Below, piece after piece: positions 18,907-62,268 of a stretch of DNA of 64,000 bases (its first letter is position 1; every line of letters begins with the position of its first letter). Under the pieces are notes generated by a model. It was not told where the DNA came from. It saw only the letters and a program-made list of their open reading frames with translations, and searched no databases. The translations under genes were made by a program, and so were the position numbers. Source of the DNA: Amphiscolops sp. MND2022 (lineage: Eukaryota); assembly GCA_964187785.1 (NCBI GenBank), contig OZ076409.1:57538001-57602000 (forward strand). Reading direction: 5' to 3'.

Positions 18907-18975
18907 GGTTATACTTTTCCAAAATTCAAATTTTGGCGCAATCCGCTTTTCTCAAAAATCTTTGAACAATAGAAA

Positions 18976-26877: not shown

Positions 26878-27227
26878 GGGTGGGCGGAAGTAGGTCGAAG
26901 GAACGGGATCGAAAATCAGAGTTAGTCCTCAGGTCGACATACCAAATTTTTGAATGGGATCGAAACAACTCCGATCGAAATTTTTATAACAGTAGTCAGA
27001 TATGTTCACATACCCCTAGTGCCCTGAATGCAGGAGCGAAGCGAAGCGGAGCGACGTGCCATATGGCCATGCCTCAATGTTGCTACTTGGCGAAGGGAGC
27101 GAAGCGACCGAGCCATACAACAAATACGATTAAATTCGACCGCATTCCATTCGATCCCTGCAATTCGATCAAAAGGTTCGACCTCTGTCCTTTCGACCAG
27201 AAAAATTCGACCTATTTACAACCACCC
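26878..27227. mobile_element. MULE-type MITE with GCGAAGC core
   Basis: TIR GGGTGG...TAGGTCGAA / TTCGACCTA...CCACCC, TCGA subterminal repeats, 9-bp TSD GACTTGAAT/GACTTGAGT. Confidence 0.8.
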
Positions 27228-28409
27228 GACTTGAGTTATGTTCATCATAAGTAGATTAAGATGCACCAAAAAACACGTTGAACAACAATAGCAATTCAGG
27301 AAACGAGCACAGTGTTTCTATCATAAAAATTAAAGAAATAGCTCCAAAAAAATTTCTTGAGCTATTTTTTGAATTCATATTTGCTCAGCTCGAAGTTTAA
27401 AGAAAAATTTGCATCGAAGAAATTCGCTAATTTCATGGCTCTCGTGAAGAAAATTCTTTCGGTAGTTTGCATTCGGTTTGGTTTTTTTTGTATGAAGTGT
27501 GTTGTGGGACGAAGTTGGTAGTTAAACATGTCTTTTCTCACAGAGAACAGGTCATCAAAGTTCTGGAATTTGAACTCAATATATAGTGCGGAAGATGATG
27601 TCAGAGAGCTGAAACAAAAGCAAAATCGGCAAAGGACTTATATAAATCAAACGGTTTTCTTTAGGATGTCTCACGAGACATCCACCTGGTACAAAAGCTT
27701 TAGGAGATAAGCTTTAGGAGACTTCTTTTCAGATTGATAAAACGGCCGTAGGCATCAAGTATTTGTTTTTCAATGTGCGGGGTCCAGGAGAGTGTTGAAA
27801 CAAAAAAGATTCCAAGATATTTGACCGGTTCGAAAGTAAAAGAAACGTCTTCATCCTCGAAAACTAATATTAGTTGTACCTTTACTGGCTTTTTCAAAGA
27901 GAACCTTATGGGCTTTGTTTTATCAGCAATAAACACCATTCCATTTTCTAATGCCCAATCATGTAGTCGAAGAAGATCATTTTGAAGTTCATAAGGGCAT
28001 TTCGTTGTTATCTTTGTATCATCTGCAAATATGAGAGCGTGAGACTTGGTGAAGCTTTCTGCTACATCATTAATGAAAATAATGAACAATATAGGTTTCA
28101 AATTATGGCCTTGCAGTACTCTACTCATTTTTTTTCAAACTCTGAGGCATGATCATTGACGTGGGTCAGGGACATTTCGTCACCAGCCATTTGGGCGACA
28201 ATATGGCGTCTGTCACAAGGGCCACAAAAGTGTCGACCAGGGTTGTCGAGATCTCGACAAAATCATTCTCGATTCTCGAGTGACATCCCGTTTCTCGATT
28301 CTCCGTCTCGAAAGTTCTGAAACTTATTTCTCGGTCTCGATTCTCGACAGAATCTAATTTCTCGAATATGTTCTCGACAATAGTGCTATTTCTCGGGTCA
28401 TTTCTCGAC

Positions 28410-29352
28410 TAGAGGAGGGAATAACGTCTAAGGAATAACGTCTAAAGGTCTACCGGGAATAACGTCTAAAGGAATAACATCTAAATTGAAATATTAGGGA
28501 ATAACCTCTAAAAAAACGGGAATAACGTCTAAACAGAGGAATAACGTCTAAAAAGAGGAATAACGTCTAAACCTGAAAACGCGAATAACGTCTTAATTAC
28601 AGAAAAACGACTAAAATACAGAAAAATTGTCAAAATACGTCCGAAAAACGGGAATAACGTCTAAAATTGAAAAAATTCAGGTCAATTAGGATCTGATGCT
28701 ATGAAGTGATTCAAAGTATAAAACATGGCATGGGACATTTTGCCGAATTTTTATTCGGCAAAGTGGGCATCGAAATTCGGCAAAGCGGGCAAGGCAGTTG
28801 TCTACATCTGCAAAAACAGACTTTTAAAGCTATAAAGTGATTCAAAGTATAAAACGTGTCTCGGATATGTCCCCATTTCCTCTAGTGCCCCGCGGCCCCT
28901 TGGGGCCGCTTATGTTCCCATATTGCTAAGCGAGGTCGAACAGGAGCAAAGACCTAGCGGGAACGGAGATCGCGAAGCGATCGTAGTGTGAGCTGGTCTT
29001 TGCGACGGTGAGGGCGAGCGTGCATACACCGAATACGCCCCCACAATATGTGGGAAAAAATAAATAACTATGAATTGTTGTTGTTCGAATTAAGGGTACC
29101 GTAGACAATGATACACTTGCTAGGACCCATTTTTGTGCAATTTGTTGTGAAAATATTCAGAAATATTTTTTTTTGATTTCAGAAAGTTCAACTTTCAAAA
29201 CAGGAAAAACGTCTAAAAAACGGGAATAACGTCTAAAAAAACGGGAATAACGTCTAAATTTTTAGACGTTATTCCCGAAAAATGATTTAAATTTAGACGT
29301 TATTCCCGTTTTCAATTTAGACGTTATTACTTAGACGTTATTCCCGCCCGCC
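28410..29352. mobile_element. MULE-type MITE/foldback element with GGAATAACGTCTAA subterminal arrays, inserted in the hAT end
   Basis: Inverted arrays of GGAATAACGTCTAA / TTAGACGTTATTCC; perfect 9-bp TSD TTTCTCGAC. Confidence 0.85.
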
Positions 29353-29476
29353 TTTCTCGACATACTTTATCTAGTAGAAAACAATGGCATTTAATAATGT
29401 CTCTAGGTGAATGAAATGAAATGCTTCTCATTGAGAGGGTTATAAACTTCACCAAAGCGACATTAAATGTGCAAGA

Positions 29477-31179
29477 TTATGATCTTAGCGAGGCGTTTTT
29501 ATTTAAAAACACATTTCGGTGTTGATTGTCAGGAGCCAGCCGGCCCCGAAGATATGACTTGAATTGTCGTCCTGTCGAAAGCATTCTCTCAACATCACAG
29601 CTTGTTGGCCAAAAATGATCATTAATAATCATTCTATAGACATATAGACTTGAAATTGAATTATTCAACGAACAAACCTGAAATTGGGCAACGATGCAAT
29701 TATATCAAATTGCTCATCGGCTTTCTCTCTGTTAAATTCCGCAAACGACATAATACTTGGACTTTCCACATATTCGTGATCAACACTGGGAAGCTGGTTA
29801 GAATTTTCTTTCAGTTTCAATTCTCGTATGTGTTCATAAAATTCACCAGATTTGTGACATAACCCATTGGCAATTGCGTTTCCGTCAATCCATTTTGAGA
29901 GCACTGATCGAACTGAGGATGTCATAGCAGCTTCGTTTCGTGCGACATGATTGAGAAATCGAATAACCTTAATGGCCACACCTAAGCGCGCGTCTGATTT
30001 CTGTAATTCCAAAGCACACTCTTTCAGCGGTTTTGAAAGGGAGCAAATCTTCTTGGATTTTTCTTAGAGAGCCGATCATCGGTAATAAACACAAGTACAT
30101 CTTTCATTTCAATAAATCGTAATAGCATGTCGAGCAATGAGTTCCAACGAGTGGCATTGTCCAATACAACTTTTAATACAGGCCGGTTCATTATTCGTTG
30201 CGCTTCAGCCAATTTATCTTGTAGTTTTGGAGAACGCTTTATGTCTCGAACACATTTTGACGCTTATTTAATAACGTCAACGTAAAGATCGTTATTTGTG
30301 GTTTCGTTGACATTGGTGGTGTCTGATTCATCTTCATCATCATCTGATTCAATTTCTTGACCACGTTCTTCGTCTATTTCAAGAATGAATTTTCTAGCGC
30401 ATAAATTTACAATTTTTGCCAAACATGGAAATGAAAACCAGTTAAACACGTTAGCGACAGCTTGAACATCTGCGCCACAGTCGACCACACAAATTGTAAT
30501 ATCAGATGGCAATAATCCATCCGTAAAGCTGAAGATGCTTTTTGATAAGGGCGCATATTTCTTCGGTGCCACAAAATCCTGTGTAGTGTGTAGTGAATCA
30601 TTCCAAGGCAAAGCTTCTGCTTTTCAATATAAAGGTAAATTCCCAAAAACTTCACACCGTCCGATGTTGTCCATTTATCAAATGACACGCATAAAACGTT
30701 AGAGGGGTCCCGGCAAGCTATAATTGACTTAACAATTTGAAACATTGTCTGATATTCGTTCTCTAACTGACGATTAATGGAATGTTTGCTGACTTTGGAA
30801 AAATTCAGTTGCTTAAATATTTTCTGGAGTGTCTTCGATTTAACAATTTTATTCACAGGAATTCCGTCATCGTAAACTAGTCGAGCCACATCGCCTAACC
30901 CGTTTTCAATTTTTGCTGCTTTTCCACGCGCAAAGGGCAATTCTCCTTGCTTATCATCTTCACTCCCCCATTGCATACTTGTCTGTGCCTTCGGAGGCCT
31001 GTTGAATTGGAATCTTTGCATTTAATATTTGTGCCACATGCAAAACATCGTCGATATTCTGTCTGTCTTCCGTTAACAAATTGAACAAGGAACGATTTTG
31101 GAAGATCCTCTTTTGCCCCCTTGTTTGTTCTGTATTCAATTATATTATCTGGAATTGTAACAATGTTCGCATCTGCCAT
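29477..31179 (-). pseudogene. hAT transposase pseudogene
   Basis: Split over several ORFs: BED-like CFAC..LRRH, SFDKWTT, VVDCGADV, FPCLAKIVNL, TRWNS, PTSCDVERMLS. Confidence 0.88.
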
Positions 31180-33177
31180 ATCTCAATCTAAAAATACAAG
31201 AAATAAAAAAACCATTTACTTTACTTTTAAAAATAGTGAAAATTAAATATGGCATTTGCGATATTTCAAAACTTTTAGATAAATGGAAATGGATTTCGCA
31301 AATTCATTTCTCGATTCTCGATTTCTCGACGAATTATTTCTCGATTCTCATCTCGAATTGGCATTTCTCGATTCTCGACCGAGTGTCGCGGCTATTTCTC
31401 GACAACCCTGGTGTCGACCAAATGGGTTGATCAAATTGATCATTTCCTGATATATTTGAAGAGGTTAGTATATTTGTTGTATGGCTCGGTCGCTTCGCTC
31501 TCTTCGCCAAGTAGCAACGATGAGGCATGGCCATATGGCACTTTGCTCCGCTTCGCTTCGCTCCTGCATTTAAGGCACTAGGGGTATGTGAACATATTTG
31601 GCCATTTAGTCTACGGGACATTTGGGCGACATCATTGTCGCCGAAATGGGCTAAAATTTTTGTCGCATAATTGGTTGGTGACGAAATGTCCCTGCCCCCA
31701 TTGACGATTACCCGCTGTCTTCGATTCTGGAGGTAAGAGCTCAGCAACTTCATCAAGTTACCATCAATGCCGAAAGTTCGGAGTTTTTTCAGAAGTATTT
31801 GATGGCATGATCTGTCGAATGCTTTTGAAAAGTCCATATACAAGTTATAAATATCTTCTCGAATTTCAAAAGCGCCCTGAAGAAGTTTTAACTGGACGAG
31901 GAGCTAAGGTTGATGTGGATTTCTGTTTCAAAAAACAATGTTGGGTATTGAAAATTGAAAATTTGAGACTCCAGAATTGGAAACAGCTTTGAGAACTGTA
32001 ATTTCTCAAAGCAAAGGGACAGTTTTGATAGACTGGAAATGGAGCGATAGTTTTCGATAATTTTTGTACTGTCTTTTCGATGAATAGGTTTGATTCGATT
32101 AGCTTCCAGCACTCCGTGTATTCGCAGGTTGAAGTTATTTCCTCTACCTACTTTAAAAAGTGAACACTCAGGTTGTTAGAAACTGCACGAACATATTACC
32201 AGGAACTTGATCGGGGCCAGTTTCTAGATGACATAGGACAACGTTTCTGACACTTCATTTATATTGAATTCCAAAGAGTTGTTGCCTCTGAGAAATCACC
32301 CACTTCTTGAGTTTCGTCATTCACAAATTGTGCACAAAAAAATCATTGAAGGCGGAATCTATTTCCTTGTTGCCTTTGAATATTTTCTCTTCTTTTAGCA
32401 TTTCAACAGGAATTGACGAAAACGTTGTTTTCAACGACCGTATAAGTTTGTAGATCTCATTTACCCCAGGGATGTCTTGATAAAATTTGTTGAGAAAACA
32501 AATTGTATCAAGTTCAGCTATGTCAGGTATGTTCACATACTCCTGGTGCCCTATATGCAGGAGCGAAGCGTTCGAGCCATACGTCAAAGATGAAGAATAT
32601 TTTTTCTGACTTGTGCAACTCGCTATCATTTTCGGACTTGTGAAACCCAAATTTATTTTCGGACTTGTGAACAGCCTCCAAAAAAAATCTCAAAATGCCG
32701 AAGAAAAACTGAAAGACCGTTTGATCTCGCCCGATACTGTATGTTACGCGGAAAAACAGAAACTTTATGGTTCGGTTCGCTAGTCCTAGATTCAGTTCAC
32801 AAAGCCAAAAATTATGATACTTTGAATTTTCGAAGAACTATGAAGAACTATTTTGTCCAGTTCGTGTGGATTGAAAAAAAGTCACTAAATTAGTCGCGTT
32901 TCACCTCATGAAGCGCCGACTAAAAAAGCTTCATAATAAATCTAAGATAAAGAACACAGGTCCGGACATCCTGGGGTGATATGCCCTATACATAGTCTGG
33001 TCTGCAAGAAATTGGCATTTGCGCAAACTGTAGAGGCCGTACAATTAGGAAATCATAATTAGCTGGTACAAAATGGTTGCATTTTAAATGAGTTGGTGAT
33101 GACACATTGTACGGAAATTGCGACAGTAAAGTAGCGAAATTTATTGTATCATGACAGCCTCCACTCCTCAACCAGGG

Positions 33178-33690
33178 GGTCACAAGTCACTTGCCCTAAA
33201 GTCAAGTGGCTTATTTTTTCGTCGAGTCATTTGGCTTAAAAGTCTGCAACCAAATGACTACAAAGTTGTGCCAAGTACAATTTAACTCAAATGATGGCTG
33301 AAAAACATATTCTAGACCAAAACTGAATTGATATTTCATTGTTAAGTTTGGTAGATAAAACGAAAGTTTTGAATTTGTATGAAGAGATTAGCATATTTGT
33401 TGTATCGGTCGGTCGCTTCGCTTCCTGCGCTTCCTTTGCTAAGTAGCAACAATGAGGCATGGCAATTTGACACGTCGCTCCGCTTCGCTTGGCTCCTGCA
33501 TTCAGGGCACTAATGTTTTGTGAACATAGCTAACTACATCATAAAAATAATTTCGACAGAATCAGTCACCCGTTTCAACTCAGTGCTTTTAAACCAAATC
33601 ACTTTGCGCCACGAGACCAATACCCGAGACATCTGGCGTTAAAACTCTGAGCTGAAAGACCAAGTGTATTAGGCCAAATGACTATGAGCC
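33178..33690. mobile_element. Decayed MITE with AGTCATTTGG/CCAAATGACT repeats and GCGAAGC core (minus orientation)
   Basis: Imperfect TIR GGTCACAAGTCACTTGCCCTAA / TTAGGCCAAATGACTATGAGCC; TSD not resolved. Confidence 0.6.
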
Positions 33691-38060: not shown

Positions 38061-38099
38061 AGTTCTTATGATGCTGACTGTTTTACACTTTTCTCCTAT

Positions 38100-39080
38100 T
38101 ACACCAAGTGATAATTAGTTACACTGAATGACTAAAACTCAGTAATTGACTGGTTTACACTATTTTCCGGTCCATAAATTTACACTAATTGACTGAATTA
38201 CGCACTGATGCAGTACTACGCACTTTGACCAAATTACGCGATTTTCCACTACGCATTTTGACTGAATTACGCCGTCTTACTAATTACATGGTGTAAAATA
38301 GTCAAATAGTGTAGCACCGTAATGAATTTGACTATTTTACGCGTTTTGTGAGTCATTGGTTTACCTATATTAACGATGGTTTTATGAACTTTGTTGTGAA
38401 GATTGCAATGGATCATTTTAACTTGCTAGATGTTTCCGTTATTCCGTATTGATTCAATGATGACTAGTATTGAATTCTGAGTGATTTGAGTTCAATCACG
38501 AATTCAAATCATAAAGTTTCTATTTAAAAGTTTTGCTTACTGGCATGATCAGTGAGCAATTAGTTCAAATCAATAAACTCTAAATTGACTTAAGTAGTTA
38601 GTCACACTAAATGATTAGAATTCTTTTGCATGCATGTGTCATCCATTGTAAACTTTGGTGTATGTGTTAATGTACGTATGCGTTAATTGTTTAATCGCGT
38701 AATTCAATCAAAGTTAATGCGTAATTTAGTCAAAGTAATTAAACTCCAAGCAACTATCCAATGTAAATTTATGTGTTTGAAGCAATTATTAGATTGCCGT
38801 AAACCAGTCAAACTTTGACTACTCTACACTTTTCGGTAGTTTAGTAAATGAATACCTCATTAAAAGTGGAATTTAATCAAACTTTGACTGAATTACACCT
38901 TACTAAATTAGCTTGTAAATTTTGACTGTTTTACCTATTTACTAACTACGCATTTTGACTGGAATTCACCGCGTTCATATTACACTGTGCTGCACCACTA
39001 CACGTGTGGATTACTACAGTCTTTGACCAATTTACAGTAATTGACTATTTTACCGAAAATACTATTTACACCAAGTGATC
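38100..39080. repeat. Decayed array of short TTGACTGAATTAC(A/G)C-like units in both orientations (probable old MITE/foldback)
   Basis: Recurrent TTGACT..ATTAC / GTAAT..AGTCAA motifs. Confidence 0.45.
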
Positions 39081-43276: not shown

Positions 43277-43727
43277 TGGGTACTCCTGACTAAGTGTGGT
43301 CCCAAGCAATTTCTCTCTACTAAGTGTGATCCCTATAATGTAAGTGTGGTCCCTGCATATTTTGTCAGAATAATTATTATAACGTAGTCAGCTATGTTCA
43401 CATACCCCTAGTGCCCTCAATGCAGGAGCGAAGCGAAGCGGAGCGACGTGCCAAATGGCCATGCCTCAATGTTGCTACTTGGCGAAGGGAGCGAAGCGAC
43501 CGAGCCATACAACAAATATGCTAACCTCTTCAAATCAAGTTCCATACATATTGGCTGTAACAGCACTAAAATCTAGTAAATTGAATTCTGCTGTTTTGAA
43601 CTACATGTAATGTTTGCTTTACGTTGGCTATTCTAAATTTGGCTATTTCTAGGGACCACACTTAGTCAGGAGTTTTCAGGCCGGCTCCATAAATTTTGTA
43701 GGGACCACACTTAGTCAGGGGTACCCA
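43277..43727. mobile_element. MITE with 4-bp TSD and GCGAAGC core
   Basis: TIR TGGGTACTCCTGACTAAGTGTGGTCCC / GGGACCACACTTAGTCAGGGGTACCCA, TAAGTGTGGTCCC subterminal repeats, TSD GCAA. Confidence 0.85.
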
Positions 43728-46513
43728 GCAATGTTTGGTAAACATTGAAAGAGGCGCCATTTAATAAATTCTTGGAATTCATTTGGTTATCTGGTTTTTA
43801 GGTACCCTGGTTGGAACTGCTTGAATGATTTTATAAAATTCTCAAAGAAATGTCCATGCATTAAATCTTCACTGATTAGATTTAATTTTATCAAGCTGCC
43901 TATAAAATGCATCTTAAATTTGGCGGCAATTCTGCGCCGCGACGTTTTGGAAGTTTCATAAAGACGCCGTTCTAATTTTGAAATCACTGAGACCTTAATC
44001 AATTTTACCACGCTTTCAATGCAAACAAATTCAAGTCACATTATAAGTTTCAAAGTGGCGTCATATTCAGCGTGCTAGTTGGCTAACGGTGATTACATAA
44101 GGTACTTACATGGGAAACTTACGCGTGAAAACAAAGTGATCGCTGCGGTGAAGAAGTGGAAATGTTTTCAGTTTTAATTCAAATAGTGAAGGCTGCATGG
44201 CAATCCTACAAAATGTTTCCACGCACGGTCCCGGAATTTTCCATGTTTTATAAAAAATTAGCCTGCATGTTTCCATGCAGCATGTAAAAAGTTCAAGCAA
44301 TCTCGACTAGGGTATCTTGGAGAATCACGAACTTTTTTAAAGTAGACTACAAATTTCACCGATTGGATCACAAAATGAGTGAAGATCAAAACCTACACAG
44401 AGGCCAGTATGTTACCGTAAACAAGTCTCTTTTCGCGAGAGCTTATGTACGATCTTATACACCCGAGTTGATAAATTTCAACAATCAATCAGTCCTCATT
44501 AGTGCTCATTACAATCCTGCAGAAAAAATTGTTGTCGATTCCCGAATAAGAAGTTCCAAAATTGGCTTCCTTCCAAGTAAACACAAGGATAGGTCCTGTG
44601 TAGTATGCTTTGACAATAATTTTGTCAGAGTCAAACAGAGATTCGTACAAATCTAAAATCCCGAGGGTGTTTAATGAACTATCGTTACAGCCGGGTGAAA
44701 TTTCCCTAACTTGATGTTGCCTTTAAACGAGAACTAGAACTAACCGCTGAAGTAGACAGCAATTTCAATTATTTTTTACGGCTTATCAGTTCACTTGTCC
44801 GCTCCGATATCAATACAGTTCCCACAATCTCAAAAAAAGTAATGAAACCATTAAAGCTTTGGAAACACTGACTACCGTCACACGCACAAGAAGAACAAAT
44901 CACCGGCGGAATTTTACCGAGTGGTGACTGTCAAACTTTTTGTGAAGAGTCAAAGCACAGAGATCAATTTGTCAAAAATCTTACGCGCTCACAAAAAACA
45001 TTTTTGAGAAATTCGGAATATTTTGCAACAGAATTAACCAAATTGGACAGATTGGATTTTCAAAACAAAATGATGTAAACAAGAAACAATACTCGGAGAT
45101 ATCGAATGTGGAAATTTATGTCTGATTAAGAACGGAAAACCAGAGATGTACACGACAGTTTAGATATCACTAAGCTAGAGGTCCATGAGGTTTTATTTGT
45201 TGATTTGGCTTTGGAAATGCTTCCATTTTTCAAAGTTTGGAAGGTTTTCTCAAATAATTGAACCAAAGTCATTGACCGAATATATTTTTTTTCAATCCAG
45301 GGAGAAGGGTTTTAGAAATAAGGTCAATCGAGTAAAGCCTCTGAAACTTTTATATAAATGACAGTCCCGGTTGAGTTATAAGAGACATGGCCGGATCGCC
45401 CCTATTGTCGTATTAGCAACAGTGTTTCTTTAACTGAAAACAAGAAAACATCAAGGTCAACAAGAAAAGTCTCGCAGGGCCAAAAACTTCAAATGGGTGA
45501 TCTTTTGCTACCTTTTGATATGGTCCAAGATACATTTTTAGACCTGCTTCACGATGATATGCCTACTGACGAGTTTGAACAAAAAAAGTGGACGCTTCGA
45601 GGTAAACTGAAAGGTATGCGGGAAACTCATCAAAAACAACTCATCGAAATTTCAATGGTGGGAAACTGATGGATCGAAAATTATCTCATCAAATAATAAT
45701 TGAGTGCAAACTCGTCTAATAATTACAGATTACCCACAGGGACTCTTGTTTTGCTAGTATTTTTGACTTGTTGTTTTCGGCGAGTTGTTTTTGACGTTTT
45801 CTTAGATTCGAACTGACGAACAAATCTCAAAATATAACCATGAAATTAATTTCTTCAAATAATTTTGTCATGACTTGAAGAGGAGGAACCCTTGGAAAAA
45901 CTTGCTATTTTGTTTATAGGAAATTATTGAAAATTTGCAGTGGGCATTAAATGGTCACTTCCCCAGGTTAGGATCTCTTCAGGCGACGACAAAAAACATT
46001 CTGGAAAAACTTGCGTACTTCACGAGTTTTCTTGATTTTCAAAAACAGATTCAAGAAAGTGTTTTTACTTGTATTGAAATATTTGTTTTATACAGTTAAA
46101 TTTCGTCTGGTAATTTTTGGACCACTCGAATAGAACTTTTAGGTTGTTACTTTCCGTCTTTTCGGGAAACCAAAAGTTTTAGTTTTAACAGAAAATGTTT
46201 ATATATTTTTTTGCATCTGTTTCTGCCATTACTTCTATAACTGCTTCAACTGCTTTAATTTTTCTATAATTCATAAGCTGCTTTGTCTGGGGAGTATCAC
46301 GGAAGTACGGAGTATGACTGTTCAAGTCCCGTGCAAAACCAAATTTTCATTGCTTGCACAGGTTGAGGAATGACCGAAAGTTCACCCTGTTGGGTTTTTT
46401 GGTACTATGCGACGTTTTCCTGGTTTTTAAAAACCGAATCAGCTTTTGATTTTAGGAGGAATAGAGCGTTTCGCGAGCATAAATACCCGCGGGTGTTTTC
46501 AGAACAGTGCAAT

Positions 46514-49500
46514 TGTGACATCATGTATTATGTCATACTTGAGATTACACCATAGAGGTCCAAATACTTCTAGACATTTAAGTACCTGTCAACATTTATG
46601 TTTATCATATATGCTGGTACATGTATATCTTATTATAGTACCATATTCGTATGAAATTCAGTTGGAATGGAACACGAATAACAAACAATACATTGTTACA
46701 ATCTATATGTTCCTCATCTTGACCTTACGATACGATAGAACATGGCGCAGTCGGAATAAATAAATGGAGAGCAACAAAAATTTGGAAAGCACAAGTTCCT
46801 CAAATGGAAAAACTTCAGAACGGGGGACCGCAAACAATGAGAAAACTCATCAGAAGACCACCCTACCTACCTTCGAGAAAAGGGGAACACAAGAGGCCGA
46901 ATTGTGGTGGCGTAGATTCACCCAGTACATGAAGATGACTCAAAACATCGATCTGAATATCATGACTACAGACAGAGAAATACTGGAACAATATCGAGAC
47001 GAACTAGAACAACGGGTCAAAGACGTTTTCATAGAGGCACTGGGCGAATCCGTCATCACTGAGATGACAAGAACCGTTCGAGACAACGATCCGAACAGAT
47101 TGGATCTCAACCACCTACATTCGTTGTTCAGACTACATTTTATTCCAGAACGTTACAAATTTCGAAGCCGAGACAATTTCTTCTGAATCACACGAGAGAA
47201 AAGTGAAACAGCCAACGACGCCTGGACACGAATTTTTCAAGTAGAAAAGAATTGTGAATTTGAAAACGTGACCCCTGCAGTACTAATCGCGTCAATGTGT
47301 TTATCATTCATTGGAAGAAAAACGGGCGATTTTGAGTTAAAGTAGAAAATTAGAAAGCGACATGACTATTGAAACACTTACGGACATAGTACACGAGTAC
47401 ATGTATGACAGGTTAAACGAGTCAAGCATTTCAAACGATGGCAGAGAAGCACAACACATTCAAGAACGACAATACAAACGGAAATGGTCTGATAAATTCA
47501 GTAACGAAAGTCTAAAAAAACCCAAATAATCAAAAACCAATATATAAAGACAACCGGTGCGGACAATGCAGTGCACCTAACTGGTCAAGAATGCACAACT
47601 GCCCAGCAAAAGCCGCTGAATGCCGTAATTGCAAAAGAAGGGTATACTACGAAAAAATGTGCAGATCACTGAAGAAAAAAAACATATCGAAGGAAGTCAT
47701 CATCAGCAGAAGAAGAAAACTGGGACTATAACAAAATACAGAAGATAAATGGAAATGATAAGAGAGTATTCTACAATACAACGCTGTTGGACNNNNNNNN
47801 NNNNNNNNNNNNNNNNNNNNNNNNNNNNNNNNNNNNNNNNNNNNNNNNNNNNNNNNNNNNNNNNNNNNNNNNNNNNNNNNNNNNNNNNNNNNNNNNNNNN
47901 NNNNNNNNNNNNNNNNNNNNNNNNNNNNNNNNNNNNNNNNNNNNNNNNNNNNNNNNNNNNNNNNNNNNNNNNNNNNNNNNNNNNNNNNNNNNCAACAAAG
48001 TTAGATTTTGATTATGCATATGGACAAATCCAACTGGACAAATAGAGAAAAAATATATGCATATTTATCGTCAAAAGGTGGAGTATTCTTTGGATACTAC
48101 CGCTTCTTAAAAGGATTCTACAGACTGGTAGATATTCCAACAAACTTCCCCGACAACCAATCTTCCAAGAACACCAATCTTCCAAGAACACTAATCTTCC
48201 AAGAATACAAACACCCATAGTGGCTTGACGATCTAATAAGAGTAACGAAAAGGGATGTGAAGCAACACGAAGCAGACCTTAGAAAAACAATGAAAAAACT
48301 AGAAAATGTCGGATACAGACTAAACATATAGAAGTGCGAGTTTCAAGAGCGAAATTGAATGGATGGGGTCTAAAATCGATCAAGAGGAATACGACTACTT
48401 TCCTTGGAGCGATCCAGTACCTCTCAAAACTTATCGAGATTTTATCTGCCAACACTGACATTTTGAGAAAACATTTGAAGAAACAAAACCAATGGAATTG
48501 GACAGACGAATATATCAAAGCATTGAACAAATTAAAGGAATTTACAACGAAAACATCCATGCCTGGCCCTCTGTAACGCAAATAATGAAAACATTTTAAC
48601 AACAGAGACGCTAGTACAAAAAAGTTTGGAGCAACACTGTCGCAACGGCAGAAAGATGGCAATTTTAAACCGTTCGGACACGCAAGCAGGTTCTCATTGG
48701 ATACTGAGAAGAATGCAATAAACGAACTGGAGCTACTTGCGGTAGTATAGGTTCTGAATCATTTCAACCAATTGAATTACTGACATATCATCAGGCGCTA
48801 GAACCACTAATAAGGAGAAACAGATCAAATAAAACGGATAGCGTAAGTCTAACACAATGGCTAGATAGAATGGCAGATTTTGACATAAAGATGAGACATC
48901 GTAGACTTTTGAGCAAAAATCCAGTGTCAAAACCAGAACGAATAGAAAATTACAATGAAGAGTACATAATTGATTGCACAATACCTTTATTCGAGTTCAT
49001 CAACAACCACAGCAGCATCAACGAGTCAAAGATGAAATAAACGCGAATGGACAACTCAAAGAAGTGTGAACAGAAAATCGACCAATCACAAAACAGTTAT
49101 CGAGAGAAACCGAAGTCAAAGGACAGTAAAGCGAACAATCGCAGTTCGTTGCTATCATCTCAACAGAAAGTTTCACACCATCAGAAAAATATCAGAACGG
49201 ATTATAAAAAGATTGAACAATTGGAGAAGGAAGTCTCCTCAGCAGAAACACTTGTTCTGACAAATAGATGGAAAAATTTAGGTAAACCGAACAGTTACAA
49301 AATGAGGAATGGAGTTTGACAGCATACAACCCACCAAGATGCCACCGAATGGAAACCAAACGGATCGAAGTGGAACTGCAACAAAAGATTAAGAAACTCG
49401 TCTAGAAAAGAATAGAACAACAGAGCCAAGAAACATCGGATGAAAAAAGCAGACGAGAAGAAATGTTCAGAGTGAATGGGAAAATTAGAATCACACCAAT

Positions 49501-49664
49501 GCAAAACAACACGAACGAGCAAGGGACCAGTAAAATTACATCAACGGAAGAAACGCGAAGAAACCACATCCAAATAATTAAATTCACGTACCGGCATTTT
49601 GCTTCAAAAAGTAACTGGGAATCATATAGATCCAAATGGGGCGAGTGAGTCATGTCCAAGAAAA
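46514..49664 (+). mobile_element. Truncated duplicate of Gypsy element (5' LTR 46514-46742, PBS, gag, partial pol)
   Basis: TG...CA LTR, PBS TGGCGCAGTCGG, gag ORF at 46764, CCHC-like knuckles, DFDYAYGQI, WLDDLI. Confidence 0.88.
47793..47992. other. Assembly gap (200 N)
   Basis: Run of N; the paralogous interval in the second copy is 52348-52760 (413 bp). Confidence 0.99.
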
Positions 49665-51063
49665 ATTTGTTGTATTGGCTTTGGAAATGCTTCCATTTTT
49701 CAAAGTTTGAAAGGTTTTCTCAAATAATTGAACCAAAGTCGTTGGGCGAATATAATTTTTTTCAATCCAGGGAGAAGGGTTTTAGAAATAAAGTCAATTG
49801 AGTAAAGCCTCGGAAACTTTTTAAATAAATGACAGTCCCGGTTGAGTTATAAGAGACATGGCCGGATCGCCCCTATTGTCGTATTAGCAACAGTGTTTCT
49901 TTAACTGAAAACAAGAAAACATCAAGGTCAACAAGAAAAGTCTCACAGGGCCAAAAACTTCAAATGGGTGATCTTTTGCTACTTTTTGATATGATCCAAA
50001 GTACATTTTTAGACCTGCCTCACGATGATATGACTACTGACGAGTTTGAACAAAAAAAGTGGACGCTTCGAGGTAAACTGAAAGGTATGCGGGAAACTCA
50101 TCAAAACAACTCATCGAAATTTCAATGGTGGGGAAACTGATGGATCGAAAATTATCTCATTAAATAATAATTGAGTGCAAACTCGTCTAATAATTACAGA
50201 TTACCCACAGGGACACTTCAGTGCTGATTATGGAATAATTTTCCCTAATTGATGCATGAAATTTTCTGGTTAATGCATATTATTGCTGTTTTAGTTATAT
50301 AATTGCTAGTATTTTTGACTTGTTGTTTTCGGCGAGTTGTTTTTGACGTTTTCGTAGATTCGAATTGACGAACAAATCTCAAAATATAACCATAAATTAA
50401 TTTCTTCAAATGATTTTGTCATGACTTGAAGAGGAGGAACCCTTGGAAAAACTTGCTATTTTGTTTATAGGAAATTATTGAAAATTTGCAGTGGGCATTA
50501 AATGGTCACTTCCCCAGGTTAGGATCTCTTCAGGCGACGACAAAAAACATTCTGGAAAAACTTGCGTACTTCACGAGTATTCTTGATTTTCAAAAACAGA
50601 TTCAAGAAAGTGTTTTTACTTGTATTGAAATATTTGTTTTATACAGTTAAATTTCGTCTGGTAATTTTTGGACCACTCGAATAGAACTTTTAGGTTGTTA
50701 TTTTCCGTCTTTCGAGAAACCAAAAGTTTTAGTTTTAACAGAAAATGTTTATATATTTTTTTGCATCTGTTTCTGCCTTTACTTCTATAACTTCTTCAAC
50801 TGCTTTAATTTTTCTATAATTCATAAGCTACTTTGTCTGGGGAGTATCATGGAAGTACGGAGTATGACTGTTCAAGTCCCGTGCAAAACCAAATTTTCAT
50901 TGCTTGCACAGGTTGAGGAATGACCGAAAATTCACCCTGTTGGGTTTGTTGGTACTATGCGACGTTTTCCTGGTTTTTAAAAACCGAATCAGCTTTTGAT
51001 TTTAGGAGGAATAGAGCGTTTCGCGGGCATAAATACCCGCGGGTGTTTTCAGAACAGTGCAAT

Positions 51064-54000
51064 TGTGACATCATGTTTTATGTCATACTTGAGATTACAC
51101 CATAGAGGTCCCAATACTTCTAGACATTTAAGTACCTGTCAACAATTATGTTTATCATATATGCTTGTACATGTATATCTTATTATAGTACCATATTCGT
51201 ATGAGATTCAGTTGGAATAGAACACGAATAACAAACAAAACATTGTTACAATCTATATGTTCCTCATCTTGACCTTACGATACGATAGAACATGGCGCAG
51301 TCGGAATAAATAAATGGAGAGCAACAAAAATTTGGAAAGCACAAGTTCCTCAAATGGAAAAACTTCAGAACGGGGAACCGCAAACAATGAGAAAACCCAT
51401 CAGAAGACCACCCTACCCACCTTCGAGAAAAGGGGAACACAAGAGGCCAAATTGTGGTGGCGTAGATTCACCCAGTACATGAAGATGACTCAAAACATTG
51501 ATCTGAATATCATGACTGCAGACAGAGAAATACTGGAACAATATCGAGACGAACTAGAACAACGGATCAAAGACGTTTTCATAGAGGCACTGGGCGAATC
51601 CGTCATCACTGAGATGACAAGAACCGTTCGAGACAACGATCCGAACAGAATGGATCTCAACCACCTACATTCGTTGTTCAGACTACATTTTATTCCAGAA
51701 CGTTACAAATTTCGAAGCCGAGACAATTTCTTCTGAATCACACGAGAGAAAAGTGAAACAGCCAACGACGCCTGGACACGAGTTTTTCAAGTAAAAAAGA
51801 ATTGTGAATTTGAAAACGTGACCCCTGCAGTACTAATCGAGTCAATGTGTTTATCATTCATTGGAAGATTAACGGGCGATTTTGAGTTAAAGTAGAAAAT
51901 TAGAAAGCGACATGACTATTGAAGCACTTACGGACATAGTACACGAGTACATGTATGACAGGTTAAACGTGTCAAGCATTTCAAACGATGGCAGAGAAGC
52001 ACAACACATTCAAGAACGACAATGCAAACGGAAATGGTCTGAAAAATTCAGTAACGAAAATCTAAAAAAACCCGAATAATCAAAAACCAATATATAAAGA
52101 CAACCGGTGCGGACAATGCAGTGCACCTAACTGGTCAAGAATGCACAACTGCCCAGCAAAAGCCGCCGAATGCCGTAATTGCAAAAGAAGGGTATACTAC
52201 GAGAAAATGTGCAGATCACTGAAGAAAAAAAAACATATCGAAGGAAGTCATCATCAGCAGAAGAAGAAAACTGGGTCTATAACAAAATACAGAAGATAAA
52301 TGGATGGAAACGATAAGAGAGTATTCTACAATACAACGCTGTTGGACAACGAGAGACCATTCAAATTCGTTATAGACAGCGGATCACCAGTACCACTAAT
52401 CAAAAATTGCCTATTAAAGAAAACAACCAAAGTGAATCACCAATTACCACTTAAAAAGATGAAAATAACCAAAGAATTGAACTCACTGGACAAACGAAAG
52501 CAACAGTAAAAACAAACACCAAAACGCTAGAATCACCATTGGTGATTACAAATGCAATAACATCGCTGCTGATGAGATTAGATGAGATGCAACGGTTGGG
52601 AATACATCTCAACAACAATAACAGCGAAGTACAAATACACAATACAAAAACGGATGATACTAAGTCACAATAAAACAAAAAACTCAAACGCGAAGCTTGG
52701 AAGAAGAAATTTTAAGGTTTCCAAGGAAATCATCAGAACGAGAAGACGGCGAAATTCCGGCAACAAAGTTAGATTTTGATTATGCATATGGACAAATCAA
52801 ACTGGACAAATAGAGAGTAAATATATGCATATTTATTGTCAAAGGTGGAGTATTCTTTGGATACTACCGCTTTTTAAAAGGATTCAACAGACTGGTAGAT
52901 ATTCCAACAAACTTCCCAGACAACCAATCTTCCAAGAACACCAATCTTCCAAGAATACAAACACCCATAGTGGCTTGACGATCTAATAAGAGTAACGAAA
53001 AGGGATGTGAAGCAACACGAAGCAGACCTTAGAAAAACAATGAAAAAACTAGAAAATGTCGGATACACACTAAACATGTAGAAGTGCGAATTTCAAAAGC
53101 GAAATTGAATGGATGGGGTTTAAAATCGACCAAGAGGAATACGACTACTTTCCATGGAGCGATCCAGTACCTCTCAAAAATTATCAAGATTTTATCTGCC
53201 AACACTGACATTTTGAGAAAACTTTTGAAGAAACAAAACCAATGGAATTGGACAGACAAACATATCAAAGCATTGAAGAAATTAAAGGAATTTACAAAGA
53301 AAACATCCATGCCTGGACCTCTGTAACGCAAAAAATGAAAACATTTTAACAACAGAGACGCCAGTACAAAACAGTTTGGAGCAACACTGTCGCAACGGCA
53401 GGAAGATGGCAATTTTAAACCGTTCGGACAGGCAAGCAGGTTCTCATTGGATACTGAGAAGAATGCAATAAACGAACTGGAGCTACTTGCGGTAGTATAG
53501 GTACTGAATCATTTCAACCAATTGAATTACTGACAGATCATCAGGCGCTAGAACCACTAATAAGGAGAAACAGATCAAATAAAACGGATAGCGTAAGTCT
53601 AACACAATGGCTAGATAGAATGGCAGATTTTGACATAAAGATAAAAGACATCGTAGACTCTTGAGCAAAAATCCAGTGTCAAAACCAGAACGAATAGAAA
53701 ATTACAATGAGGAGTACATAATTGATTGCATAATACCATTATTCGAGTTCATCAACAACCACAGCAGCATCAACGAGTCAAAGATGAAATAAACGCGAAT
53801 GAACAACTCAAAGAAGTGTGAACAGAAAATCGACCAATCACAAAACAGCTATCGAGAGAAACCGAAGTCAAAGGACAGTAAAGCGAACAATCGCAGTTCG
53901 TTGCTATCATCTCAACAGAAAGTTTCACACCATCAGAAAAATATCAGAACGGATTATAAAAAGATTGATTAATTGGAGAAGGAAGTCTCCTCAGCAGAAA

Positions 54001-56603
54001 CACTTGTTCTGACAAATAGATGGAAAAATTTAGGTGAACCGAACAGTTACAAAATGAGGAATGGAGTTTGGCAGACATACAACCCACCAAGATGCCACCG
54101 AATGGAAATCAAACGGATCGAAGTGGAACTGCAACAAAAGATTAGGAAACTCGTCTGGAAAAGAATAGAACAACAGAGCCAAGAAACACCGGATGAAAAA
54201 GGCAGAGGAGAAGAAATGTTCAGAGTGATTGGGAAAATTAGAATCACACCAATCCAAAACAACACGAACGAGCAAGGGACCAGTAAAATTGAATCAACGG
54301 AAGAAACGCGAAGAAACCACATCCAAATAGTTAAATTCACGTACCGGCATTTTGCTTCAAAAAGTAACTGGGAATCAGATACATCCAAATGGGGCAAGTA
54401 AGTCATGTCCAAGAAAAGAAGGAGTGGAATTTGGGAAGAGAGGGTGAGACAGGCCGAACAAAAATTCTCAATAGATTCAAAAAGATCGGAATTGAGACGA
54501 GAAAAGATAACAAACTATTAAAAACATTGGTCTGCCTGGAGCGACAAACACATCCCAGACGAATATTAACAGTACACAAAGAATCTAGCAAAAAGATTCC
54601 GGGTAATGTGTTACGATGACAAGATAATCGTGCTAAGAAGTGTGAGAAACACTTTCATCACCCTACTTCATGAAAGACACCACTCTGTCAACAAGATGAC
54701 ATACGCAGCAAAGCCATTTTGGTGGCCGAAGATGAGCAAGGAGATTCAACAGAAAGATGACGACTGTATACCTTGCAAAAGGACTGGAAAGAACATTAAG
54801 CCTGAATAACATTTGACAGCGGTGAAATAATTACCACAATCCCAGAAACCAAACCAAGAAATCCAAATGGATTTCATTGGACCAATCAGATTTAAACAGA
54901 GACAATTGTTCATACTACTATCGAAACAGCAGACGGGCAGCAGCGTACATTTTTGAAACTCCTACGGGCAAAACCGCAAAAAGTTTTTTTAGAACGTTTC
55001 ATAATACTTAATTGTATACCACAAACCATTAGAACATAAAAAGGCACGGCTTTTGCGAGAAGAATTGAGAGAATTCAGCAAAAACATAAATTCCAAACTA
55101 GTGTACAGTACACCGTATATACATACACCAACCAGACTGGTGGAGAGAGGAATCAAAACACTAGAAGGTTACATGCGTGCAAACCCATGGGAGGGATGCA
55201 CAATGAACGAAGCTTTAAGCTGTTAACCAAATGTGATGAGAACAACGGGCAATTCCAGAACTAAAGAAACCCCTTTTGAACGACATTACGAAAGAAAACC
55301 TAGAACAGAACTGACCAAATACGTAAATCTGTCACCAAACGCTGAAATTAATGTTACTTCAGCGAAGCCAGAAACACTGTAGGTGTACATGTTCTCGAAC
55401 AATGAGGGACATCACGATCAACTGGTGATGAAAGCACCCCGCAAACTCAAGGAGGATGTTCGTAAAAACTTTCCATACACTTTTCTCGGTAAGAAAGTAA
55501 ACAAAAACAAATTCGAAGGTGCATCTGTTACTAAACCACAAACAACAGTAGCCGGAACAAAACACACATTTACGACGGGCAAAAACGAAATAATACACCG
55601 GAAAAGAGTAAACAAAACGTTGAAATCTACAGTTCAGAATCCAAAATCCAGACGAGGGAAACATCGGCGAGGACCAGATGGCTGGTTCACATTAGTAACG
55701 CTGAACCAACCAGAGACGACAACGAACGCGGAACAACCATTAAGAGCGAGCACTCCCATCTTGGAAAAGAGCATGCTGGAGACAACACTACAAAGCCCCA
55801 CTGAAGTAAGCCCCGCATACTCAGCGGGGAAAAGCAAGCTGATAAGAAACAAATTCGAACAAAAATCACGATAAGCCTGCAAATGGACCTGGAAAAGATG
55901 AACGAGTCAGAAGACATACAACAAAACATAACACCAATCTGAGATGATCCAAACGCCATAATAGTGAGCGACAGAAACGGTAATACCGATTTGATAAAAA
56001 TAGAACAAACAGAAAATTCAAATCAAAACACAAATAACCAAAACGAATTATTCACACGAAAATCAACAAGAATTAAAACGGCAAATCCTATGGTAATCCA
56101 ATAACATTGATCATTGTAGGAAAGACTGTGAACAACTGGGACAAACAAAACAGTCAGTCGAACAACTAACGCGGAGTGAACCGAAAGCAAAGCACGGATT
56201 GGTGGAAGCTTCCAGCCAATGAGGAAGAAGTAGAAGAAAACCGCTGACGGAGAATGAAGGAAGAAACTGGAACTTCTCATCAAAACAAACTGTTTTGTAC
56301 CGTTTATTTAAATAAGTCATGTTAACAATTAATTTGTCATACACCTTGGTACATAGTCCTTCGTTGAGGGGGGAATGTGACGTCATATGTTACGTCATAC
56401 TTGAGTTTAGACCATAGAGGTCACAATAATTCTACACAGTTGAGTACCCTCAACATTTATATTTACCATATATGCTTGTACATGTATATCTTAATGTAGT
56501 ATCACATTCGTATGAGATTCAGCTGGAATAGAACACGAATAACAATTTATTGATTGTTACAAGCTATACTTTCCTTATCTTGACCTTACGGTACGATAGA
56601 ACA
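51064..56603 (+). mobile_element. Ty3/Gypsy (Mag-like) LTR retrotransposon, degenerate; 5' LTR 51064-51292, 3' LTR 56376-56603
   Basis: TG..CA LTRs; PBS TGGCGCAGTCGG (tRNA-Ser-like); PPT GAGGGGGGAA; 5-bp TSD GCAAT/GCAAC. Gag, protease VIDSGS, RT (partly deleted) WLDD, RNase H DAS, integrase LHERH..FWWP..CIPC and MDFIGP; many stops and frameshifts. Confidence 0.92.
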
Positions 56604-58923: not shown

Positions 58924-59250
58924 AACAAGACGGGAACGTCTGAAGTCGGCGCTATTACTAAGGCTCAAAAATCGCAAATTTTTCAAAATTGCAAAAAGGG
59001 GACTTTTGGGCTTTTTGAAAACCAGTTTGTTGCAAAATATCAAAACAACTGAAGGGGCTCTTTGGAGTTATCAAAAAATGTTTGATAAAAAGTCTCGCAA
59101 AGCCAAAAAAGGGGGGTGGAAAGTCCCATAGTGCTAAGAAATTGAAAAGGGGGACCCTTCTGCTTTGCAATGGTTTTGTATTTCATGTAAGAGGCATTGG
59201 AGGCATTCAAAATCAAGTACTAAGTACCTTTGGTAAAAGTGCACAGTGCA
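58924..59250. mobile_element. Partial HINE family A copy
   Basis: AACAAGACGGGAACGTCTGAAGTCGGCGC start; distal end missing. Confidence 0.7.
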
Positions 59251-59264
59251 CATCTACAGAAACA

Positions 59265-59515
59265 GGTTGATCATACTCTGCAAAAATAAAGAAAGGTTGA
59301 TTCCAGGCTGATCATGAATTGGACCATAAGGTTTATTTTTTCAGCCTGGCATACTCCGTACCAAATATGTTTCAGTCTCTGATTACTCTATTTTCTCTTA
59401 TGGCTCAGATTTTTCTTCAACATGACTTCAATGAACATTACAGGCTCACCATAGACCGGACCACATATGGTCCAGAGTATGGTCAGCCTGGAACCACAAA
59501 TAGAAAATTAGGATA
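59265..59515. repeat. Decayed MITE with TTCCAGGCTGA(T/C)CAT repeats; related copy at ~60943-61165
   Basis: Inverted TGATCATACTCTG / CAGAGTATGGTCA motifs at both places. Confidence 0.5.
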
Positions 59516-59714
59516 ACGTAGTCAATTAACGCATACACTGATGAAAAAACTAGATATTCTTCAACCAAAGTGACAATGCGATCACAAAACTGAAAACACG
59601 GTCACAATCGTCAATTGTTGGCAGCTTTCGCTGAAATATTGGTATTTTTTTCTCGAAAGGATCAAAAACCACACTGAAAAGTGGGTACTGCTGTAACAGA
59701 AGTTAAATTCTTCT

Positions 59715-60310
59715 TTGGTTTAATTCACCAGACAACCTTTTGATTTCACTGCTTGAATCAACCTGTCCCGAACTTCGGCCGTTTCTGGCATAACCCCTGA
59801 TCTCATCGTCGTCTCTATAGGTAGAGTGAAAATTCGCATCTTTGTTCACCATTGTGTTATAGCTGGGACTTTCGGGTCTTCTAACAGAATTACTAGACTC
59901 GCTTTCTTCCCTTTCATGGTTATTTCCTCATAACATTATGTCAAGCATTCCATTGTCTGATAACCTTTATACTCCTCTTGCTTTGTTTTGTTTTCTCGTA
60001 ATAGGCATCAAGACAGTGTCAGATTATAAATAGCTGAATTATTTTAAACGGAAACTGTAGTCTCGAGTACGTTTGAACAACAGAACAATTTACAGCATTG
60101 TGTCCTCACTAGGGGAGTTACTAGTCTTTATAGTCCCACAGGGATGACATTCACACTCTTGTTCATCATCTAGTCAATTATGTCAAGGAAAATGTCATAT
60201 GACTTTCCACAACTACCATCTTAGAATATAACTTACCCATCAACAAATAATATATCAAAGTATCGGTGAAAACATACAACGCAGTACTTCAAAGGTGTTT
60301 TCAAATGACA
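59715..60310 (-). mobile_element. Old truncated LTR with gag-like ORF relic (ATG at 60008)
   Basis: MPITRKQNKAR..LSD..LDIML.GNN.ERE..EIKRLSGELNQR is homologous to the ORF starting at 63715; TATA-like TATAAA at ~60127-60132; TG start at 60310. Confidence 0.65.
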
Positions 60311-61767
60311 TGTTGTATTGCCGTTAACTAGCCTAGCATTTCTTCAAGTCATCAATAAGGTCAAAGGTATCTAAAATATGCGTCGACACACTCATGCGCG
60401 TGCTTAGTAGTACACTTATTCAGCTTCTAATTGTTAATCTTTACATTGCTTTTCACAGTGAAAATGATCATTCAGCAAAGGTTAACAGAGTTTTAAAATA
60501 GGAAAGTGTATAAGTCAGAATCTTAGAATAACTTCAAAAATTCAGCAATGTTAACAGGCTAATCTGGATATTTATATCTAATGATGAATTATAAAAATAT
60601 CAACAATTAAAATTAGAAAGTTTCCTGGTTAATATAAAAGTTCTAGTTTTGTTCAAGTATCGTGTAGGGGCCCTACTTTAGTACGTAGGCAGCGTTCCGG
60701 GTGCATTATCGTGCCCAGCTGCCGATGTCGTATTCACTGTCCCGTCACAGGCGGCAACCTTCGACAAGAGGATATAATTTGTTGTTAACTCCGCTAAGAG
60801 TTTTACGTCGGTAAGATCTACAATGTTTCGTTCGGAAAGACAAATTGTCTAACGTGGCTCTATTGCCGGTTCTGCATTCAGCCTATGAAGCTGGCGGTTC
60901 TCAATATTTTAAAAAAATTTCTCTAAATTGCATGTCACAGTAACCCACGTGGGCAACAAAAGTTTATGATTTCAGTTTGATCATATTCTGGGCCATTTGT
61001 GGTCCCAGACTGGACTACAGAAGTTTGTGGTTCCAGGCTGACCATACTCTGAATCACATATAATTCCAGATTGATCATGGTGATATAAGAGAAACAAATT
61101 TGTTTGATTTGAATGGTGCCATAAATGATCAGAGTATGATCAAGCTGGCCAAAACACCCGGGTTTCTACATCAACATTACAAAAACATTGAGGGTACAGA
61201 GTCCGGTAAGAATCTAAATTTTTCCTATCCTTTGATGGAAAGTCTGATTAATTGGCTAAACATGTTTCAATTTAGTGCAATCGAAGTTTTTTTGTGGAAG
61301 TTCTATTACTTTTACATGGATTATATCATTTATTTCAACCAGCTCCATGACGAAAAATGTGTTGCACGAAAAACGTTTGTTTGGCATGTTTAACTTTCGA
61401 TATGGAGACTCTCAGGTCCATATCTCGGCGAGACTTTGATTTCATGTTCTGTAGCCAAAACTGTATTCAGATGTGCATTATTTCACGTATTTGTAAGTGT
61501 TTGACCTGTTATATTTTAAGTTTTCACCTGCATTAGGTAATAAAATGTATTTCAACTAAATGCCAATTTTGACGTCGGAGATATGTAGGAAGTCTCAGGT
61601 TCCCTAGAAACAAATTTTTACGTGCTTGTGGAGCGTGCATGCAGTGTGCCAGCGTGTCGCCTCGGAGCTCTAAAATGGAGAGTCCCTCGACGCTATAAAT
61701 GTCTCCCTACGAGACCACTTTTTGGGTAACAAGTGGTGTTTAGACTTGTGTAAAGACTATGGACTCC

Positions 61768-62268
61768 GGGAGCGGGACCGAGCAGCTGATTTCAAACGGG
61801 ACAAAACAGCCGATTTTCAACATAGGACAAAACAGCCAATTTTAAAATAGTACAAAATCGCCGATTGGTAAAAAATAAAAATCGCCGCTTTTGTCAAAGC
61901 GTAATTTTTTCAGTTAATAAATTTATTATTATAACGTAGTCAGCTATGTTCACATACCCCTAGTGCCCTAAATGCAGGAGCGAAGCGAAGCGGAGCGACG
62001 TACCATATGGCCATGCCTTTATGTTGCTACTTGGCGAAGGGAGCGAAGCGACCGAGCCATACAACAAATATGAACCTCTTCAATTAAATCAAGTTCCTTG
62101 CATATTGGCTGTAACAGCACTCATTTTGTTCCGCGTTGAAAATCGGCTGTTTTGTCTCGTTTTGCAAGTAGGCTGCTTTGTCCCGTTTTGAAAATCGGCT
62201 GTTTTGTCTCGTTTTGGAATATCGACTGTTTTGTCTCGTTTTAAAATCGGCTGTTTTGTCCCGTATCC
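61768..62268. mobile_element. MULE-type MITE with GACAAAACAGCCGATTTT subterminal arrays and GCGAAGC core
   Basis: TIR GGGAGCGGGAC / GTCCCGTATCC, 9-bp TSD ATGGACTCC/ATGGTCTCC. Confidence 0.85.

Follow-up and report, generated by a model that had tools for sequence, protein, structure and literature searches.

A core with predicted hairpins shared by miniature inverted-repeat elements with unrelated arms in Amphiscolops

The stretch analysed here, a window of 64,000 nucleotides from Amphiscolops sp. MND2022 (contig OZ076409.1, positions 57,538,001 to 57,602,000), carries a short sequence, hereafter the core, that recurs inside MITEs (miniature inverted-repeat transposable elements); statements on its enrichment rest on this window and on 12 short records from two public sequencing runs. 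BLAST and nhmmer recovered five full copies of 130-195 bp with 82-97% pairwise identity: c1 (about 26980..27132, + strand), c2 (about 31450..31604, - strand), c3 (33372..33547, - strand), c4 (43373..43567, + strand) and c5 (61925..62121, + strand). Besides these there is a deleted copy (32522..32593, + strand), which kept both of the conserved boxes that bound the core and lost the stretch between two hairpin repeats, and a diverged relative (about 28864..29040, + strand) with a duplicated 5' box, different hairpins and a 3' box. The core hidden Markov model does not pick up this relative in the window with nhmmer; its box-to-box alignment with the core scores 43, a value reached by 0/1000 shuffles and by 0/606 other window segments. 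These searches and alignment statistics confirm what a first-pass annotation had seen, a sequence shared by five full copies, a deleted copy and a diverged relative, and they bear out the enrichment of the heptamer GCGAAGC, which occurs 21 times in the window against 4.0 expected, with 16 of the 21 occurrences inside the seven copies. Rfam gave no matches in the window at gathering scores.

The minimal unit of the core, laid out in c4 at 43391-43521 on the + strand, consists of a 5' box (43391..43414, which the deleted copy and the relative also conserve), hairpin A (43425..43447, with a GAA triloop, a GAA/GGA loop and tandem GA/GA in its predicted fold), a linker, hairpin B (43480..43507, predicted to fold with a GAA triloop, tandem GA/GA and a GAA/GA loop) and a 3' box (43508..43521, conserved in the relative and, in part, in the deleted copy). 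No full copy in the window has lost either box or either hairpin sequence, the hairpins lying at 27033-27055 and 27088-27115 in c1 and at 61977-61999 and 62032-62059 in c5; c3 is the most diverged full copy (82-86%). The GCGAAGC minihairpin noted earlier is present, but only as the tip of two longer predicted G·A-zipped hairpins between conserved boxes. A long form, alike from end to end in c4 and c5, extends this unit leftward by about 18 bases and rightward by about 46. In c4-equivalent positions, left ends of copies fall at about 43373 and 43391 and right ends at 43518, about 43535-43540 (two copies) and 43567, c2 having its left end at the 5' box and c1 its right end at the 3' box. Left ends bunch at 43372-43379, where c1, c4, c5 and 4/12 of the outside records have theirs; on the right, c4, c5 and a third flank bunch at 43566-43570. 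A 4-base near-direct repeat bounds the minimal unit and a 6-base inverted pair flanks it, with homology extending beyond in most copies. We saw no target-site duplication (TSD) or empty site belonging to the core itself in the window, and its position is similar across c1-c5, at 82-138 bp from one tip of the host element.

The hosts are as follows. Host MITE 1 (of c1; 26878..27227) is 350 bp long, with G-rich tips, short subterminal repeats and a 9-bp TSD with 1 mismatch. Host MITE 2 (of c2; 28162..31699) measures about 357 bp once a nested hAT element is subtracted, and has an exact 7-bp TSD, or one of 8 bp if its terminal inverted repeats (TIRs) are offset by one base; its insertion divides the reverse transcriptase of a long interspersed nuclear element (LINE) into RVT_1 positions 73-110 and 118-203. 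The nested hAT (28238..31410, - strand, 3.2 kb, 8-bp TSD) has a broken transposase at 30407-31021, assigned by the protein atlas and not by Pfam scans, and no full core of its own. Inside it sits the host of the diverged relative (28410..29352), an element of 943 bp with long subterminal repeat arrays and an exact 9-bp TSD. The locus at 27700-31843 is thereby a nest four deep, in which a LINE reverse transcriptase fragment encloses MITE 2, the hAT, the 943-bp element, of Mutator-like element (MULE) type, and the core relative. Host MITE 3 (of c3; about 33175..33690) has decayed TIRs and subterminal repeats. Host MITE 4 (of c4; 43277..43727) spans 451 bp with a 36-bp TIR that is 86% complementary, and host MITE 5 (of c5; 61768..62268) spans 501 bp with subterminal repeat arrays and a 9-bp TSD with 1 mismatch. 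The deleted copy has a possible but weak host at 32464..32976, marked by a 12-13-bp inverted pair with C-rich tips.

Comparison of the arms of these hosts confirmed the earlier claim that each full copy sits in a different inverted-repeat element with unrelated arms. Left arm matches right arm in 6/7 hosts, and repeat arrays are seen, while likeness between hosts stays at shuffle level in 20/21 arm pairs. The exception, c4 with c5, was equalled by 3/200 shuffles, but by 29/500 in a co-linear retest, and a derivation of c4 from the arm of c5 was rejected on that insignificant retest. Elements with TIRs make up about 13% of the window by hand annotation, which gives p of about 4e-5 for five random landings inside them. 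No clear free-standing core was found among the 7 copies in the window, all 7 lying in or between inverted repeats and 6 in well-defined hosts. Since the cores are up to 97% alike while the arms share nothing, recent transfer between families is required, and from the sequences the core has likely passed between transposon families.

These families probably belong for the most part to one superfamily. G-rich tips together with subterminal tandem repeats occur in 5/6 well-defined hosts, three of them with 9-bp TSDs, and this anatomy, with TSDs of about 9 bp, is that described for animal MULEs, or Foldback type 2 elements (PMC5225508, PMC6446971). Measured against the 8-10-bp TSD of MULEs, the earlier statement that three full copies have 9-bp duplications holds for c1 and c5 and applies also to the relative's host, whereas c2 has 7-8 bp; for c3 a TSD was looked for and none was found, and for c4 the 4-bp duplication reported before is exact at the outer ends, though 6 bp with 1 mismatch fits too and an inner 8-bp alternative exists. 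Most hosts thus probably look like Mutator/Foldback-type elements, and those of c4 and of the deleted copy might differ. Because most hosts share this anatomy, exchange would be between families, probably mostly inside one superfamily, and the proposal of a module swapped between superfamilies finds no support. No cognate autonomous transposase for the hosts was found in the 108 window reading frames scanned.

With ordinary Watson-Crick pairing the core folds worse than its shuffles on both strands (DNA z +2.3 and +2.8, RNA z +0.7). As standard folding models do not include sheared G·A pairs, we read these scores as uninformative on a G·A fold and as speaking against an ordinary stem-loop. When G·A motifs are allowed, hairpins A and B are each predicted, for a single strand only, to be closed by a C-GAA-G triloop together with two G·A motifs, and the relative is predicted to form a G·A-zipped triloop hairpin at 28963-28987 within a 9-bp stem. 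Under G·A-aware scoring the seven top hairpins of the 64 kb all lie in c1, c4, c5 or the relative and all on the core strand, although they amount to two independent hairpins plus that of the relative and not to seven independent cases; 0/5000 shuffles match c4 or the relative. Because the relative retains the boxes and the design with other hairpin sequence, the predicted folds point to selection on structure. Hairpin A also holds what we take to be a primosome-assembly-site heptamer consensus, which the literature covered did not confirm.

The same hairpin design recurs well outside this genome, and phage covariation supports the G·A hairpin rule as an outside test. The hairpin-B pattern has 119 matches in viral (phage) contigs, where its free pairs are complementary in 82/96 distinct contexts with eight pair types, and in 28/42 against a shuffled expectation of 6.9 once the GC/GC simple-repeat class is set aside. 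Among controls in the same contigs, flipping GA to AG gave 0 matches and 36 non-GNA loops jointly gave 17. The hairpin-A pattern has 12 viral matches, some with long outer stems. The 5' box and a second hairpin-B variant have 0 matches each in the viral contigs, and the diverged relative matches nothing in phage records; in metagenome contigs a 26-base pattern has 0 matches and a looser one 25, none of them a relative by the core model.

Near-exact hairpin B was found in 108 prokaryote stretches, among them multi-copy repeats of haloarchaea and others. Neighbouring triloop hairpins in these loci lie on the same strand in 56 cases versus 18, and in 17 versus 14 farther away. In 15/108 loci, by a crude filter, the hairpin-B sequence stands at the tip of attC-like sites; sites tipped by a G·A-zipped GAA-triloop hairpin are seen in Anaerolineae, Bacteroidota and Calditrichaeota (loci L145, L172, L189, L212, L142, L163, L164, L167, L177 and L188, near position 500). 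A multi-copy intergenic repeat of Halorubrum sp. SY-15 has the same hairpin with swapped GNA loops (L136, L137, L143, L161, L162, L165 and others; the first 80 loci of the list include 12 copies). A scan of the 108 loci for TIRs with TSDs gave few convincing MITE shells, L154 and L213 at best, and we do not claim that bacterial hairpin-B copies sit inside MITEs. In 20 plasmids 22-23 bases of hairpin B match exactly, with E values of 0.2-0.6 that are insignificant alone and cover the hairpin only. Of three plasmids opened, two, from two plasmid lineages, have the match some 330-380 bp ahead of repA. Two unrelated plasmids (L267, 1960-2060; L269, 940-1020) have GNA-triloop hairpins clustered immediately in front of short direct repeats and repA, as candidate single-strand initiation signals. 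We take the likeness among phages, archaea, attC sites and plasmids to reflect one design that folded single-stranded DNA has in common, and not shown homology.

Further copies come from outside the window. The 12 short records, from sequencing runs X1 and X2, all fall within 43372-43570, a small share of the stretch that leaves the arms of host 4 uncovered; contigs of these runs show presence and not absence, and missing cover was not counted. Their ends lie at 43372-43379 on the left in four records and at 43566-43570 on the right in three. Two of the loose record ends agree with the right arms of hosts 1 and 5; others bring in flanks that are new. As the core junctions of hosts 1 and 5 recur in other samples, these are multi-copy families and not one-off insertions, and in them host and core have multiplied together after capture. 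No RNA run is among the public sequencing runs listed with the stretch.

Our favoured explanation, which we put forward tentatively, is that several MITE founders took up the core, a structured single-strand module, by imprecise capture, and that it persisted because it favours copy gain. Imprecise capture is favoured by ends that are staggered yet leave the box-to-box unit intact, by the absence of free copies and by the design kept in the relative. Founder copies of several unrelated Mutator/Foldback-type MITEs would each have captured the core separately, perhaps through imprecise template switching in gap repair or through fusion of neighbouring elements, and the families carrying it would then have bloomed. 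Pack-type elements capture DNA by fusion of neighbouring insertions (PMC8903248). The hairpins may fold while a MITE is single-stranded in copying or gap repair, and by analogy could then act as a priming, restart or nuclease-protection mark; mini-hairpins of this kind are found at phage priming sites, including the phage G4 origin, and at ssiA (PMC13037366), and internal MITE sequence can raise transposition (PMC9921582). The core may descend from a terminus of a Crypton-type element, and its hairpin design may be linked to coral Crypton ends. MULEs are related to IS256 elements, which copy out through circles.

Several observations weigh against this explanation. Core ends cluster more than random capture predicts, and partial forms exist, since 7/12 outside records break off at 43432-43454 and at least three of these have unlike sequence beyond. 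The inverted pair at 32464-32976 is scored equally well by 92/200 shuffles, which makes it a weak host. Elements with TIRs but no core occur at 21535-22288, about 38100-39080 and about 59260-61150, and the nested hAT lacks a core of its own. Regarding the fold, the rule for scoring G·A motifs was drawn up with the sequence already seen, the hairpin sequence is damaged in c2 and in both hairpins of c3, and changed positions, tallied by hand from copies and outside records, number 10/51 in the hairpins versus 27/80 elsewhere (p=0.11), that is, no significant sparing. As for mechanism, we know of no established single-stranded step in cut-and-paste DDE transposition. Muta1 excises in yeast (PMC5225508), and in mPing and mPong there is no common promoting sequence, the effect following GC content (PMC9921582). 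With a GC content of 55% in the core versus 34-48% in the host arms, GC alone could produce any benefit.

A wider proposition seems to us possible, at slightly less assurance than the capture itself, namely that animal DNA transposons have in common a portable single-strand signal, comparable to bacterial priming and attC hairpins, that either targets foldback MITE interiors through a recombinase of its own or gives a replicative copy boost to any MITE acquiring it. The two mechanisms first suggested for the core, an interchangeable module and a tiny element aimed at MITE interiors, remain the leading pair, and what is supported from that suggestion is the shared structured single-strand module in unrelated MITEs.

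The second of the pair we consider somewhat less likely than capture, as a close competitor: the core would be a small mobile element, moved as folded single-stranded DNA by a Crypton-type tyrosine recombinase or an HUH enzyme, that prefers foldback MITE interiors and is amplified there, the short copies being later deletions. Two conserved boxes around exchangeable hairpins have the anatomy of a recognition site, and both the clustering of ends at 43372-43379 and 43566-43570 with different flanks and the near-direct and inverted repeats around the minimal unit fit such an element, as do the attC-like tips with hairpin B in the filtered prokaryote loci, attC being recombined as a folded strand (PMC5027507). 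A link of the design to Crypton ends would also favour it. Yet no recombinase or HUH domain was found in the 108 frames scanned, which took in part of a set of 154 stop-to-stop frames whose remainder lies mostly in repeats; the core has shown neither a TSD or empty site nor a free-standing copy among the seven; and hosts without common sequence would need targeting based on structure, a mode for which no precedent in eukaryotes came to light. The core also lacks the end signatures of Helitrons and of attC sites. Helitrons or Helentrons have either a 5' TC with a 3' hairpin and CTRR or ends that are T-rich and carry sub-terminal inverted repeats. The sole CTAG of the core is internal with conserved sequence running past it, and its observed ends lack CTRR. 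An integron attC assignment was rejected in the same way, as the inverted flanks stand in the opposite order to RYYYAAC ... GTTRRRY arms and the frames scanned hold no integrase.

It is improbable that the core is neutral cargo, an abundant GC-rich repeat or dead transposon end picked up by chance in the manner of Pack-MULEs and of no benefit to its host. Non-autonomous MULEs do have heterogeneous internal sequence (PMC5225508) and Pack-type fusion offers a capture route (PMC8903248), the region 28162-31699 is nested four deep, and the sparing of the hairpins is insignificant; however, such pickup needs many free donors, of which 0/7 copies is a clear example, the same cargo in five families is unlikely, and the relative keeps the design with different sequence. 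Very unlikely is descent of all hosts from a single old family, with fast turnover of the arms and a core that was either conserved or kept uniform through gene conversion; this would suit the common G-rich tips, the similar position of the core in c1-c5 and the faint c4-c5 arm likeness, but leaves arms at shuffle level beside cores that are up to 97% alike, linkers included, and TSDs that differ in length.

Known systems resemble the core and its hosts in part. The Muta1 derivatives of Aedes aegypti, MULE or type 2 Foldback elements, are like the hosts in TSDs of the 8-10-bp type (three clear cases), subterminal repeats of the 9-15-bp type and non-coding interiors (PMC5225508, PMC6446971); they carry heterogeneous interiors, whereas here a single structured interior occurs in unrelated families. 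The highly conserved central domains known from short interspersed nuclear elements (SINEs), proposed as recombination hotspots, likewise combine a conserved middle with different ends (PMC5804259), but are RNA-mediated, old and mostly vertical in descent, while the core lies in DNA transposons, is recent (up to 97% identity) and has a DNA-type predicted fold. SINEs have a head derived from tRNA, 5S or 7SL, a LINE-like tail and a TSD; the core was rejected as one, with no Rfam match in the window at gathering scores and no TSD of its own. The interiors of Stowaway Ost35 and mPing contain enhancers that raise mobility, with no common sequence or single-strand structure reported in that account (PMC9921582). 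Cryptons have no TIR or TSD, and none belonging to the core itself was seen, though it has a possible 4-base terminal repeat; Crypton terminal direct repeats of 4-6 bp are found in fungal and oomycete groups and in none of the animal groups, and the core, 130-195 bp and always nested, is shorter than the non-autonomous Cryptons listed, which measure at least 353 bp (PMC3212892). The main text of that paper does not use the word 'hairpin', and no tyrosine recombinase was found in the 108 window frames scanned. GCGNAGC mini-hairpins of the phage G4 origin, ssiA and N4 promoters share the triloop and the one-strand fold predicted for the core, and are described in a review whose text does not contain 'transpos' (PMC13037366).

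The hosts and the mini-hairpin are of kinds already known, and what appears to be new is a structured core common to unrelated eukaryotic MITE families, for which SINE central domains and internal MITE enhancers are the nearest concepts. No description of a shared hairpin core in eukaryotic MITEs was found in the literature covered, which left Repbase Reports and most subscription journals outside its scope. The description of CryptonV sits in Repbase Reports (cited in PMC8869645), and a repeat entry for the core, unclassified or of Crypton type, may already exist.

The rest of the window (38% GC) contains exons of TDP-43, of a Rab-family GTPase and of a gene with zf-CW plus PWWP, genes that point to an animal, along with further repeats. 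One abundant repeat family, at 1271-1813, 9301-9810 and 18425-18906 and in many fragments, is T-rich where it starts, contains a palindrome with a C-GTA-G triloop as its cap, has a hairpin at its end, and looks like non-autonomous Helentrons. Two repeat copies that are 92% identical (6149-6325 and 18974-19149) begin with a GCA-triloop hairpin similar to the one with which the diverged relative starts. Among the core-less elements, 21535-22288 is a hAT-type MITE with an 8-bp TSD and about 38100-39080 a decayed foldback element; the foldback-like element at about 59260-61150 has in its left repeat array, at 59507-59524, an 18-base match (2 mismatches) to the core start, which we estimate to be about chance level, and no hairpins. 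At 45195-54417 a decayed stretch resembling a long terminal repeat retrotransposon is duplicated in tandem, at 95-98% identity, around a 200-N gap, which could reflect recent duplication or an artefact of assembly.

It is an open question why short MITEs reach higher copy numbers than their autonomous parents, and their interiors are usually taken as arbitrary filler. A strand-specific, transferable module in unrelated families brings that question within reach of tests on a single 130-bp cassette. For builders of repeat libraries it would also be a warning that interior matches can join unrelated families. If true, the core would be either a transposon of transposons or an amplification module that works across families, and would imply a single-stranded step in the amplification of MITEs.

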